NCBI RefSeq assembly: GCF_056746865.1
Contig: NZ_CM163382.1
Strand: one strand, 5' to 3'
Length of the DNA stretch: 64,000 nt
In this document: piece after piece, positions 1,217-4,417 of the stretch
Layout: each line of letters starts with the position of its first letter
How positions within the stretch are numbered: position 1 is the first letter of the stretch
Notes under the pieces: model-generated
Databases searched by the model: none
Told to the model about the DNA's origin: nothing
The model's input: only the letters and a program-made list of their open reading frames with translations
Program-made: the position numbers and the translations under genes

Positions 1217-1585
1217 GTGTCAGACACACTTTCCGGGACAACGCATCCCGATGACAATGACGACCATCCCTGGTGGGGACTACCCTGCACAGTGACGCCC
1301 TGTTTCGGCGCCCGTCTGGTGCAGGAGGGTAACCGGTTGCATTACCTTGCCGACCGTGCCGGTATCAGAGGCCGGTTCAGAGATGCGGATGCGTACCCTC
1401 TGGACCAGGCCTTTCCGCTGCTGATGAAACAACTGAAATTAATGCTCACCAGTGGTGAACTGAATCCCCGCCATCAGCATACCGTGACACTGTATGCGAA
1501 GGGGCTGACCTGTGAAGCCGACACCCTCGGCTCCTGTGGTTACGTTTATCTGGCTGTTTATCCGACACCTGAAACGAAAAAGTAA
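1217..1585 (+). CDS. type IV toxin-antitoxin system antitoxin, CbeA/YeeU family
   Basis: GTG start at 1217 in frame with track ORF 1109..1585 gives about 122 aa (MSDTLSGTTHPDDNDDHPWWGLP...), the size and N-terminus typical of YeeU/YfjZ/YafW antitoxins; followed by the start of a cbtA-like gene. Confidence 0.8.
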   Translation: MSDTLSGTTHPDDNDDHPWWGLPCTVTPCFGARLVQEGNRLHYLADRAGIRGRFRDADAYPLDQAFPLLMKQLKLMLTSGELNPRHQHTVTLYAKGLTCEADTLGSCGYVYLAVYPTPETKK

Positions 1586-1674
1586 ACCACCAGAATAACC
1601 TTCTGCTCCGGCCTGGTGTTTTCACCACGCCACTGTCCCATTTTTTATCTCTGCATATCAGGAAAATCTTCAGT

Positions 1675-1733
1675 ATGAAAACATTACCCGACACGCATGT
1701 ACGGGAGGTATCGTGCTGCCCGTCTCCAGTCAC
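1675..1733 (+). pseudogene. cbtA/yeeV-family toxin gene, 5' fragment ([20 protein letters not shown]) interrupted by the IS21-family insertion
   Basis: ATG at 1675 a short distance after the antitoxin stop; the first ~20 codons match the CbtA-family N-terminus, then the reading frame runs into the IS terminus at 1734. Confidence 0.7.
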
Positions 1734-1832
1734 TGCGTATTCCGCTCTATTCGATCACGGATTGGCATCGAAGTCCGATCAGCGATTCGCATCCATTCGA
1801 TCAACCGGGAACTTAACTTTTTCTACCGCTTT

Positions 1833-2588
1833 TTAACGCGTTTTTTCGCTGCTTTCCACTACCGGGGGATTTTTCCTCAGTGACTCTCCCTGAAGGACCA
1901 CCCGGTGTGAGTTATGTACCAGTCTGTCCAGGATGGCATCTGCTGTTGTTGGGTTCTCCATCAGACCATGCCATTTATCTACCGGGAACTGGCTTACCAC
2001 TATCGTGCTGCTTTGTCCGTAACGATCCTCTATGAGCTCCAGAAGGTCATTACACTGGGCGTTACTTAACTGTTCCAGCCCCAGATCGTCCAGGATTAGA
2101 ACCTGTATTTTTTGCAACTGTTTCAGATATTTCAGCCAGCTGCCATCAACACGTCCCTGAGCCAGTTGTTCCAGTAATCGCCCGGTTCTACAGTACCGGA
2201 CGCTGTGTTTCTGTCGACATGCCTGTTCGCCCAGCGCATTGGCTATCCAGCTCTTGCCACATCCTGTCGGACCGGTTATCAGCAGGTTTTTCCTGTGGGT
2301 TATGTAGTGGCCGTTCAGCAGTTCTCTCATCTGTTCAGCCCGCAGACCTCTTGAGGCCGGATAGCGCAGCCCTTCCGGTGTTGCCTGGTATTTCAGGCCG
2401 GCATTTTTTCTCAACCGTGCCACACGGCTGTTTTCCCTGCTCAGAAGCTCGTCATCAACCAGCAGCGTCAGCCTTTCCTCGAACGACAGTTCGTCGTAGG
2501 TCTGAGGCGTTTCCCGCTGCCGTATCAGGCTCCCGGCCATCGCCGGGAGTTTCAGTTGGGTCAGTTTGTTTAACAGGTTATCACTCAT
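1833..2588 (-). CDS. istB: IS21-family transposition helper ATPase IstB
   Basis: About 251 aa from ATG at 2588 (MSDNLLNKL..); Walker A motif GPTGCGKS and a DnaC/IstB-like AAA+ core; immediately downstream of istA. Confidence 0.85.
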   Translation of the reverse strand: MSDNLLNKLTQLKLPAMAGSLIRQRETPQTYDELSFEERLTLLVDDELLSRENSRVARLRKNAGLKYQATPEGLRYPASRGLRAEQMRELLNGHYITHRKNLLITGPTGCGKSWIANALGEQACRQKHSVRYCRTGRLLEQLAQGRVDGSWLKYLKQLQKIQVLILDDLGLEQLSNAQCNDLLELIEDRYGQSSTIVVSQFPVDKWHGLMENPTTADAILDRLVHNSHRVVLQGESLRKNPPVVESSEKTR

Positions 2589-2604
2589 ACTGTTGTTCCT
2601 TCTG

Positions 2605-4140
2605 TCAGTGGTAGTAGCCCGGACCACGCAGGTTTTCATGCTCTGAAGCATATGCCGGATGTTGTTCGCCCTGGCGGGATAATGGAAGCTCCAGGTTCTC
2701 CCGATGGTGACGCAGCAGATTGTCGATAAAGCGTCTGTCAGGGGCGTTATAGTGCAGGGCAACGTAACAGGCCTTTTCCAGCCGTTCCGGGCCGTATTTT
2801 TTCTGAAGTGCCAGCAGCCCCAGAACTGCACGATAAGCCAGTTCCGGATGGGGTTTTGCCTTCAGCATGGATTCAACCACCCGGCCTGTGGACGGGCCCG
2901 TACGTTTTCCCTGCTCGATCAGGCGTTCCGGTGTCCATGTCCCGTGCTGCCGGTGGCGCTCTGGCATGTGAAGCGGATTGGTTGTGTGTTTATATTCATG
3001 TGTGCTGCGCGGATGTTGCGCCACACACTGCCCCTTGTGCCAGAGCTGTACCACCGACTGCCCCGCCTTCAGTGACAGACGCTGACCGACCAGTTCGTGT
3101 GGAACGGAGTACCAGTGACGGGCATATTCAACGTGGTAGTCAGGGCCAACCTTCACAGCTTTGTATTCCGTGTATTCATAAGGTGCCAGAGGCAGCGGAG
3201 AGAGTGCTGGCGCATCCAGTATGCGGAAGCGTTCTGCACGGGTTTGATTGCCGTACCCCTTCATTGGCCGGTTATTCATGTCTGTCAGTAACTCCCTAAG
3301 GCGCGCATTCAGCGCCCTGAGCGTGTGGAAGGTTTCATTACGGATGCGGGCAAGAAGCCATCGTTCGACGATGAGGACGCCGTTTTCTGCTTTTGGTTTA
3401 TCTTTAGGTTTGCGTGGTCGGGCCGGGATGATAACCGTGCCATAGTGCTCAGCCAGTGCCTGATAACTGTCGTTGATGACAGGCTCATATCGATCGGCCT
3501 TTTTCACTGCGCTTCTGAGGTTATCGGGGATGAGCAGCTTCGGTACGCCGCCCAGGAAGGTCAGGCAACGGCTGTGGGCATTTAACCATGACATCATGTC
3601 CTGACCTTCGCACGCTTCAACGTAGGTATAGTTGGACGCCCCCATTACGGCCACGAAGATTGCCACGCGGCGTATCTCACCGGTGTCCGGATTAATAACA
3701 GGAACCGTAGGACCACAGAAGTCGATAAAAAGCTTTTCGCCGGCACGATGCTCCTGGCGCATGGAGAGACGTCGCGTTTTTTTCCACTCCCGGTAGCAAC
3801 GGCAGAAGTGCGAGTATCCCATCGCTTTGTTACCCGCCTGTGCCTTGTATTCCATCCACAACAGTTGCCGCGTCACACCTGGTTTTCTCATTTCCGTATC
3901 GAGGTACAACATGTCAGGCATTACAAGCTCTGATGCAAAGGTGTCTTTGGGCGGAAAAATGAGTTTCTCCAGCGTGTCATGGGATATATCAGCAGGTAAT
4001 GGCCATGACAGAGAAGAGGCTTTGAAGCGGGCAAGAACCTCAAAAACGGTTGAGGCGCTGATGTGTAACGTCAGTCCGATACAACGGTTAGTCAGCTTCT
4101 TGTCGAACTTGAGCTGAAGAATCTTAAAACAGGTTTCCAT
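2605..4140 (-). CDS. istA: IS21-family transposase IstA (HTH + DDE)
   Basis: 512-aa product from ATG at 4140 (METCFKILQ..) with AGGAG 5 nt upstream; N-terminal HTH-like region and central integrase/DDE-like region; followed 16 nt later by istB. Confidence 0.8.
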   Translation of the reverse strand: METCFKILQLKFDKKLTNRCIGLTLHISASTVFEVLARFKASSLSWPLPADISHDTLEKLIFPPKDTFASELVMPDMLYLDTEMRKPGVTRQLLWMEYKAQAGNKAMGYSHFCRCYREWKKTRRLSMRQEHRAGEKLFIDFCGPTVPVINPDTGEIRRVAIFVAVMGASNYTYVEACEGQDMMSWLNAHSRCLTFLGGVPKLLIPDNLRSAVKKADRYEPVINDSYQALAEHYGTVIIPARPRKPKDKPKAENGVLIVERWLLARIRNETFHTLRALNARLRELLTDMNNRPMKGYGNQTRAERFRILDAPALSPLPLAPYEYTEYKAVKVGPDYHVEYARHWYSVPHELVGQRLSLKAGQSVVQLWHKGQCVAQHPRSTHEYKHTTNPLHMPERHRQHGTWTPERLIEQGKRTGPSTGRVVESMLKAKPHPELAYRAVLGLLALQKKYGPERLEKACYVALHYNAPDRRFIDNLLRHHRENLELPLSRQGEQHPAYASEHENLRGPGYYH

Positions 4141-4372
4141 AGTGCTCCTGGATTTTCTCTTTCTGGACATTGACGTCTCCACTGGTTTAAACACGGCAAT
4201 GGAGACTGTGGTGAAAAGAGTTAATTCCCGGAGTGACTGGCAGGATGCCAATCAATGATCGGAAGCATGCCAAATCGTGATCGATTGTGATGCCAAACTG
4301 TGATCGGAGATGGATGCCAAATCATGATCGATTCGAATGCCAAACTGCGATCGATTCAGATGCCATTTTGCA

Positions 4373-4417
4373 GTCACCATCTGGCAGACACTGCTCACCC
4401 GGTTACTGGACCAGCAT
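4373..4417 (+). pseudogene. cbtA-family toxin gene, short continuation after the IS (..[13 protein letters not shown]), then unrelated sequence
   Basis: Removing the IS and one GTCAC copy restores ..[18 protein letters not shown] in frame; downstream the sequence no longer encodes a CbtA-like protein (deleted or decayed). Confidence 0.6.

Follow-up and report, generated by a model that had tools for sequence, protein, structure and literature searches.

An intact cbeA antitoxin gene beside a cbtA toxin remnant truncated by an old deletion and later interrupted by ISSso4

INTRODUCTION

The locus described here resembles the CbtA/CbeA (YeeV/YeeU) pair of Escherichia coli K-12, a toxin-antitoxin (TA) system of type IV. 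In K-12, CbeA forms no complex with CbtA; it stimulates the formation of FtsZ and MreB bundles, and neither CbeA nor CbtA autoregulates the operon (PMC5371832). The antitoxins CbeA, YafW, and YfjZ each neutralize the three toxins CbtA, YkfI, and YpjF (Wen 2017, PMC5371832). CbtA itself requires residue F65 for binding to FtsZ and residue R15 for binding to MreB; R15C proteins no longer bind MreB, and toxicity is lost in the R15C/F65S double mutant (PMC5624674). We analyzed a locus of this family at the left end of a 64,000-nucleotide (nt) stretch of DNA (NCBI RefSeq assembly GCF_056746865.1, contig NZ_CM163382.1), the whole of which is called the window below. In the window cbeA is intact, and the adjoining cbtA is a short remnant split by an insertion sequence (IS) of the ISSso4 type.

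A preliminary description, made from the letters of the window without database searches, had presented the locus as an orphaned antitoxin next to a toxin gene destroyed by the IS. Comparison with other E. coli genomes showed that the toxin gene had been truncated before the IS arrived, by a deletion that is shared by hundreds of genomes.

RESULTS

Intact antitoxin and truncated toxin

The open reading frame (ORF) of cbeA is uninterrupted and encodes 122 amino acids (aa), the length usual for the family. It opens with GTG, as does K-12 cbeA, and a GAGGA ribosome-binding site lies 7 nt 5' of this start. The product matches the Pfam profile CbeA_antitoxin (PF06154) over profile positions 1 to 100 of 101 (E=3.8e-53; 178.7 bits, against a cutoff of 27). 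It also matches the solved structures of YeeU (PDB 2H28, E=6.8e-74; PDB 2INW, E=4.7e-75) and, at E values of about 1e-41, those of YfjZ. Compared to K-12 CbeA, 109 of the 122 residues (89%) are identical, and identity is complete to WP_001295723.1, the protein that is paired with intact toxins in strains Nissle 1917 and 4/1-1. All sequence-level comparisons thus agree in assigning the product to the CbeA/YeeU family (PF06154). The antitoxin had been described as intact, about 122 aa long, and GTG initiated, which these results bear out, and the homology searches likewise upheld the proposed family assignments. No second copy of cbeA was found in the window by tblastn.

The ATG of cbtA lies 89 nt 3' of cbeA. 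When the IS and one copy of its target-site duplication are removed, the cbtA frame is identical to residues 1 to 33 of WP_000854759.1, the toxin of 125 aa found in Nissle 1917 and strain 4/1-1, after which the sequence is unrelated; in alignments to the intact loci, homology stops at 4417/4418. At the DNA level, positions 1 to 1733 and, with the IS removed, on to 4401 are 100% identical to the intact loci of these two strains, and because the identity extends across 1,733 nt, a chance resemblance is excluded. The two pieces of cbtA are short by any measure: against the Pfam profile PF06755, the 5' fragment covers profile positions 1 to 28 only (E=2.3e-5) and the second fragment covers positions 14 to 34, both scoring just under the 25-bit cutoff (E of about 3e-5). 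The full-length PF06755 domain, which has about 112 profile positions, corresponds to about 125 aa, and includes the F65 region, is absent from the window. With the full toxin as the query, tblastn found neither residues 34 to 125 nor a second cbtA copy anywhere in the 64 kb, and no alternative reading of the junction recovers an intact toxin.

What could still be made from the remnant is very little. The ORF that now begins at the ATG at 1675 could give a product of at most 53 aa, of which 20 are CbtA residues; the IS-free remnant specifies only 33. Any 53-aa peptide would lack F65 and would carry Cys, encoded by codon 15 (window 1717 to 1719), at the position of the R15C substitution. The toxin is dead, and no active product is expected. 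Although the antitoxin is intact, the toxin stops at codon 33 and is divided by the IS; the locus is thus not a functional type IV pair. In these respects the preliminary description was accurate: the IS interrupts the toxin gene about 20 codons in (it starts at 1734, inside codon 20), the 3' portion of the gene is gone, and the toxin is nonfunctional. The span that it gave for the pair, 1217 to 4417, is correct to the base.

Three further observations concern the toxin. The intact allele (Nissle 1917; strain 4/1-1, positions 2545 to 2922 of its locus, L003) also has a natural Cys15, and this intact Cys15 paralog may target FtsZ only. Residues 6 to 15 in the N-terminal part of CbtA are the most divergent stretch of the protein. 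Finally, a chimeric ORF of 70 codons (window 4337 to 4549) begins at an ATG inside the end of the IS, passes in frame through cbtA codons 21 to 33, and continues into the region upstream of mtnK; it has a weak Pfam CbtA match (E=3.4e-5) and is probably meaningless.

The deletion that truncated cbtA

The missing part of cbtA can be accounted for by comparison with strain 4/1-1. There, cbeA and an intact cbtA are followed by DUF5983 (yeeW) and DUF957 genes, fragments of a helix-turn-helix gene, an Eco31I-family type IIS restriction-modification system consisting of two methyltransferases and an endonuclease, and McrBC; then come a short glycosyltransferase fragment (WP_000788354.1), 799 bp of noncoding DNA, and mtnK. 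The gene order in Nissle 1917 is the same up to the restriction endonuclease. For strain ATCC 25922, the 799-bp region has been described, as has the same ORF upstream of it (PMC12632272).

In coordinates of the strain 4/1-1 locus, the breakpoints are 2643/2644 and 14628/14629, the deleted segment being 2644 to 14628. The deletion fuses cbtA codon 33 to a point 739 bp upstream of mtnK; microhomology at the junction amounts to no more than one or two Ts common to both sides. Lost with the rest of cbtA were yeeW, the DUF957 gene, the Eco31I-family system, McrBC, and the glycosyltransferase fragment. Because cbtA is split, a deletion is the parsimonious direction of change, and an insertion of 12 kb would be much less likely. 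The genomes that are positive for mtnK have two main layouts. The first is that of the window, in which the cbtA remnant abuts the sequence upstream of mtnK. In the second, to which strain 4/1-1 belongs, the match starts at the equivalent of window position 4417 and has a different left neighbor.

Close to the junction, four mismatches to strain 4/1-1 are clustered in the 16 nt that immediately precede it (window 4402 to 4417); the preceding 1.8 kb (1 to 1733 plus 4378 to 4401) is 100% identical to that strain. The cluster suggests that events later than the deletion, either mosaicism or gene conversion, involved paralogous island modules. A comparable 3-nt patch is found within cbeA of LT2-3, where it gives K74E, the K-12 residue.

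Insertion of ISSso4 into the remnant

The IS has the ends TG...CA, and several imperfect copies of an 18- to 20-nt motif (GATGCCAA...GATCG) are present at both ends. Because istA and istB, direct and inverted terminal repeats, and a 5-bp duplication are all present, the element can be assigned, on its sequence, to the IS21 family (ISSso4). Identical copies, carried by several chromosomes and plasmids of E. coli, are annotated by the NCBI Prokaryotic Genome Annotation Pipeline (PGAP) as “IS21-like element ISSso4 family.” The window contains a single copy.

To place the deletion and the insertion in order, we used 5,426 complete E. coli genomes and counted a genome as positive if query coverage was at least 80%. 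The truncated junction without the IS, reconstructed as a 600-nt query, was present in 429 of these genomes (about 8%), and the IS-occupied left junction (300-nt query) was present in none of the 5,426. Some matches with an IS near the module resembled the same insertion; these proved to be separate pieces that the search tool had joined and did not represent this site. The genomes that carry the deletion were isolated from humans, poultry, pigs, and soil, a range which suggests that the deletion had a single origin and was spread by recombination.

One of the relatives, FDAARGOS_497, has the empty site. Its matches to the left and right flanks of the IS, at 100% identity, overlap by exactly the 5-bp duplication, and the site in that genome is therefore uninterrupted. 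There PGAP annotates the remnant as a 99-nt pseudogene, “TA system toxin CbtA family protein,” with the remark “missing C-terminus.” Over window positions 7532 to 56096 (about 48.6 kb), the window and FDAARGOS_497 differ by only 4 mismatches plus one IS2. Because the IS was found at this site in 0 of 5,426 genomes and is absent from the near-identical FDAARGOS_497, the insertion is recent. Thus, the truncation at codon 33 is old and lineage-wide, and the ISSso4 insertion is recent, strain-specific, and into a gene that was already dead. The toxin gene is indeed destroyed, as had been claimed, but the IS is not the cause, because the same truncation exists without it in the 429 genomes.

The reverse order of events can also be considered, namely, that the IS inactivated a working toxin gene, the 3' part of which was then lost by an IS-mediated adjacent deletion. 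IS elements are able to cause such deletions, and the IS and the truncation are only 45 bp apart. However, the occurrence of the identical junction without any IS in 429 complete genomes amounts to a refutation. In addition, the 5-bp duplication is intact on both sides of the element with 40 nt of cbtA beyond it, a configuration that does not result from an adjacent deletion mediated by an IS, and no genome among the 5,426 has the IS at this site. We regard this order as extremely improbable and retain the deletion as the first event.

The IS2 copy that distinguishes FDAARGOS_497 lies within its nanM gene, at the equivalent of window positions 29405 to 29409; the window lacks this copy, and its nanM is a single ORF (28882 to 30096). 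Movements of IS elements (ISSso4 and IS2) are the only structural differences between the window and this genome.

Potential activity of the orphan antitoxin

Because K-12 CbeA acts on FtsZ and MreB, does not bind the toxin, and does not autoregulate, an orphan copy is still potentially active. By analogy with K-12, the action of CbeA would not by its nature be partner specific, and cross-protection by the orphan antitoxin of the window is plausible. The more general statement in the preliminary description, that orphan antitoxins may cross-neutralize paralogous toxins elsewhere in a genome, has published support for this family (Wen 2017, PMC5371832). Its statement that the antitoxin is free of its cognate partner is correct insofar as the neighboring toxin is lost; the wording implies a binding pair, yet CbeA is reported not to bind CbtA.

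Targets for such cross-protection appear to be common among the relatives. At least one other locus with the 3' part of cbtA was found in 58 of the 60 listed genomes that have the deletion (median, two), these counts being of matching places and not of verified intact genes; FDAARGOS_497 has two such loci. In all four deletion genomes sampled, including strain 190, cbeA is annotated as intact. Strain 190 apparently has no other cbtA copy. The sampled cbeA copies differ from each other by 0 to 3 nt.

Several points weigh against a working orphan. The conservation of cbeA is explained equally well by recent common ancestry, the copies being so nearly identical that they give no power to a comparison of nonsynonymous and synonymous substitution rates (dN/dS). 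The counts of other toxin loci were obtained with a chimeric query that ranks the deletion genomes first, and they describe relatives and not this strain's own genome. A promoter consensus scan of the plus strand found no sigma-70-like site upstream of cbeA, but the hits were at the level of shuffled sequence (6 found versus 4.8 expected), which makes the scan uninformative. Because the authors of the K-12 work regard the genes upstream of cbeA as part of the same operon (PMC5371832), a promoter driving the left-end module may lie past the left edge of the window. Lastly, the IS starts 149 bp 3' of the cbeA stop codon, and istA and istB are oriented toward cbeA; antisense read-out from the IS, or an altered 3' end, could lower cbeA expression, an effect that is conceivable but unsupported.

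The evidence about cbeA therefore fits a working orphan or a young relic alike. A silent or neutral relic, kept only because there has been too little time for it to decay, would agree with the near identity of the deletion genomes around the locus, which leaves intactness with little weight. It would also agree with the weak transcription of the K-12 homologues and the mild phenotypes of antitoxin deletions (PMC5371832), with the lack of a promoter-like site directly 5' of cbeA in the consensus scan, and with a frameshift in a neighboring module gene of strain AH50, which shows that the module is decaying. Nevertheless, cbeA is intact in each of the four sampled genomes, even in strain 190 with apparently no other cbtA; the sole variant allele seen (K74E in LT2-3) is still in frame and has regained the K-12 residue; and the reported mode of action of CbeA needs no cognate toxin. 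We consider a relic of this kind a real possibility, although we lean against it.

At the other extreme, orphan cbeA may have been selected as a stand-alone protector, providing anti-addiction or immunity when an incoming island brings a CbtA-like toxin, or as cargo that conjugation delivers to recipients. All antitoxins of the family neutralize all of its toxins in K-12, and K-12 YagB has been proposed to be a similar orphan (PMC5371832). A screen based on overexpression recovered CbeA, YagB, and YfjZ as proteins that the type IV secretion system of the F plasmid translocates, at frequencies reported to be low (PMC11288057). The intact cbeA of strain 190, seemingly without any other cbtA, is consistent with selection, but recent ancestry explains the conservation equally well, and on balance we think such a role unlikely. 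The boldest form of the proposal is that cbeA in the lineages with the 12-kb deletion is not a leftover but a selected gene that protects the cytoskeleton, by immunity to resident or incoming toxins or by delivery in conjugation, even where there is no CbtA (strain 190). We give this little credence; if true, it would support a view of type IV antitoxins as general, partner-independent protectors.

The surrounding island module and the mtnK side

The cbeA-cbtA remnant is preceded by other genes of the module (Table 1). The antirestriction gene that is cut by the start of the window is the first gene of this conserved module, which in E. coli lies at CP4-type island ends, and intact it is 474 nt long by annotation (Nissle 1917 and FDAARGOS_497). 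For the yeeS-like gene, we carried over the PGAP coordinates from the 100% identical Nissle locus. The presence of mtnK and mtnA at first pointed to a species other than E. coli, a reading rejected because the sequences flanking the IS match numerous E. coli genomes at 100% identity and because the DHAP-shunt cluster is a known feature of the leuX island. The spacer between yeeT and cbeA is 162 nt in the window versus only 73 nt in K-12, and part of it is occupied by a 37-codon ORF (window 1054 to 1167) that has no Pfam match and is not annotated by PGAP in the identical Nissle locus. An Rfam search found no known RNAs in window positions 1 to 5300.

On the other side of the remnant is the operon for the dihydroxyacetone phosphate (DHAP) shunt, a salvage pathway for 5'-deoxynucleosides. 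At this end of the leuX island, the operon consists of mtnK, mtnA, a class II aldolase gene, and a transporter gene, followed by yjhU (mtnR), as judged from NCBIfam equivalog matches and the PGAP annotation of the identical region. The composition of the operon and the DHAP-shunt cluster's location in the leuX island are known (PMC12632272). Two mtnK promoters have been mapped, P1 at 72 bp and P2 at about 190 to 220 bp upstream of the gene (PMC12632272). The IS is 785 bp upstream of mtnK, far beyond P1 and P2, and an effect on DHAP-shunt regulation is therefore unlikely.

Table 1 Features of the left end of the window
Feature	Coordinates	Strand	Evidence
Antirestriction gene (KlcA/ArdB-like), 3' part, cut by window start	1..278	+	PF03230 E=3.8e-27
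yeeS-like RadC/JAB-domain gene	294..770	+	PF04002 E=3.7e-44; WP_001186775.1
yeeT-like DUF987 gene	833..1054	+	PF06174 E=1.5e-40; WP_000692345.1
cbeA (yeeU family), type IV antitoxin gene	1217..1585	+	ORF listing, PF06154, structures, K-12 comparison
cbtA pseudogene, 5' fragment (codons 1-19 and 2 nt of codon 20)	1675..1733	+	100% identical to 5' end of the intact gene (Nissle; strain 4/1-1)
Target-site duplication, left copy (GTCAC, 5 bp)	1729..1733		Direct repeat; single copy at empty site in FDAARGOS_497
ISSso4-like IS21-family element, 2,639 bp, intact	1734..4372	-	100% identical over full length to annotated ISSso4-family copies
istB (IS21 helper ATPase), intact	1833..2588	-	PF01695 E=1e-60; NF038214 E=9.7e-77; PGAP coordinates of identical copy
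istA (IS21 transposase), intact, 511 aa	2605..4140	-	NF033546 E=4.2e-85; rve and Mu-transposase C-terminal domains; PGAP coordinates
Target-site duplication, right copy (GTCAC)	4373..4377		Repeats 1729-1733
cbtA pseudogene, second fragment (remainder of codon 20 through codon 33)	4373..4417	+	In frame with 1675-1733 after removal of IS and one duplication copy
Ancestral deletion junction, about 11,985 bp lost	4417..4418		Alignment to strain 4/1-1 locus from both sides; same junction in 429/5,426 genomes
mtnK upstream region, last 739 bp of the 799-bp region of ATCC 25922	4418..5156	+	99-100% identical in about 1,026 genomes
mtnK, first gene of DHAP-shunt operon	5157..6416	+	TIGR01767 E=7.5e-157; PGAP annotation

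Two other arrangements were seen farther into the window. An IS5 transposase gene (about 26206 to 27222) adjoins a yjhR helicase pseudogene (25039 to 26055); this arrangement is shared with FDAARGOS_497, and the IS5 insertion is therefore older than that of ISSso4. A second, unrelated TA-type pair is formed by the yjhQ acetyltransferase gene (23263 to 23808) and the topAI/yjhX toxin gene (about 23820 to 24077), and this pair appears intact according to the annotation transferred from the identical region of FDAARGOS_497.

DISCUSSION

The best explanation of the locus as a whole, which we hold with good confidence, is that the left end of the window shows a CP4-type island module (antirestriction gene, yeeS, yeeT, cbeA, and cbtA) whose end has decayed, within the leuX genomic island of an E. 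coli of the extraintestinal type; it combines an old deletion, a recent IS insertion, and a cbeA gene that is potentially active. An illegitimate deletion of about 12 kb in an ancestor, at 1 to 2 nt of microhomology, joined codon 33 of cbtA to the mtnK upstream region. Later, and in this strain only, an intact ISSso4 entered codon 20 of the dead remnant and produced the 5-bp duplication. The toxin would then be without an active product, a peptide of 53 aa being the most that could be made. Judging from the published K-12 work, the unchanged orphan cbeA would still function if it is transcribed from upstream together with yeeS and yeeT, and its product would add to the pool of antitoxin that counteracts the further CbtA-family toxins, roughly two in number, that such genomes typically have. 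Regulation of the DHAP shunt would be unaffected, the IS lying beyond the mapped mtnK promoters.

Every component of the locus is already known: the CbeA/YeeU antitoxin, the cbtA pseudogene (which PGAP already marks as such in hundreds of RefSeq genomes), and ISSso4. Novelty is limited to the site of the IS insertion, which has no evident consequence, and the locus is a case of the ordinary decay of a genomic island. It is properly annotated as an intact cbeA, a cbtA pseudogene that arose by deletion and was later hit by an IS, and an intact ISSso4, and it has little significance beyond this. The ISSso4 insertion is a possible strain-specific marker that separates this isolate from the near-identical FDAARGOS_497. 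The deletion is of somewhat broader interest. A single ancestral event took out a toxin, a type IIS system, and McrBC, and is now found in about 8% of complete E. coli genomes, which makes it a modest example of the loss of defense and addiction genes at island ends.

Comparison with known systems shows which features of the locus are ordinary and which are its own. As in the CbtA/CbeA system of K-12, carried by cryptic prophage CP4-44, the gene order is yeeS, yeeT, cbeA, cbtA; CbeA has 122 aa and a GTG start; and the spacer between cbeA and cbtA is 89 nt, versus 88 (PMC5371832) or 89 (annotated coordinates) in K-12. Against K-12 CbtA, the 33 surviving codons of the toxin give a gap-free alignment. 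In contrast to CP4-44, only the antitoxin is intact in the window, the toxin being reduced to 33 of about 125 codons and split by an IS, and the module is located in the leuX island beside the DHAP-shunt operon. The antitoxin protein is identical to that of strains of the extraintestinal pathogenic E. coli type, Nissle 1917 and strain 4/1-1 (WP_001295723.1 and, for the toxin, WP_000854759.1). Unlike the window, those strains keep the full toxin gene and, before mtnK, about 12 kb that includes yeeW, the DUF957 gene, the Eco31I-family system, and McrBC. The ISSso4 copy is structurally the same as the copies elsewhere, and only its insertion site, found in 0 of 5,426 genomes, is new. The closest parallel to the orphan state is YagB of K-12 prophage CP4-6, a proposed orphan of the CbeA/YafW/YfjZ family that likewise has no neighboring CbtA-family toxin (PMC5371832), the likeness being one of description and not of protein alignment. 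Unlike YagB, the window keeps a remnant of the toxin gene, and from it the route by which the antitoxin became an orphan can be reconstructed.

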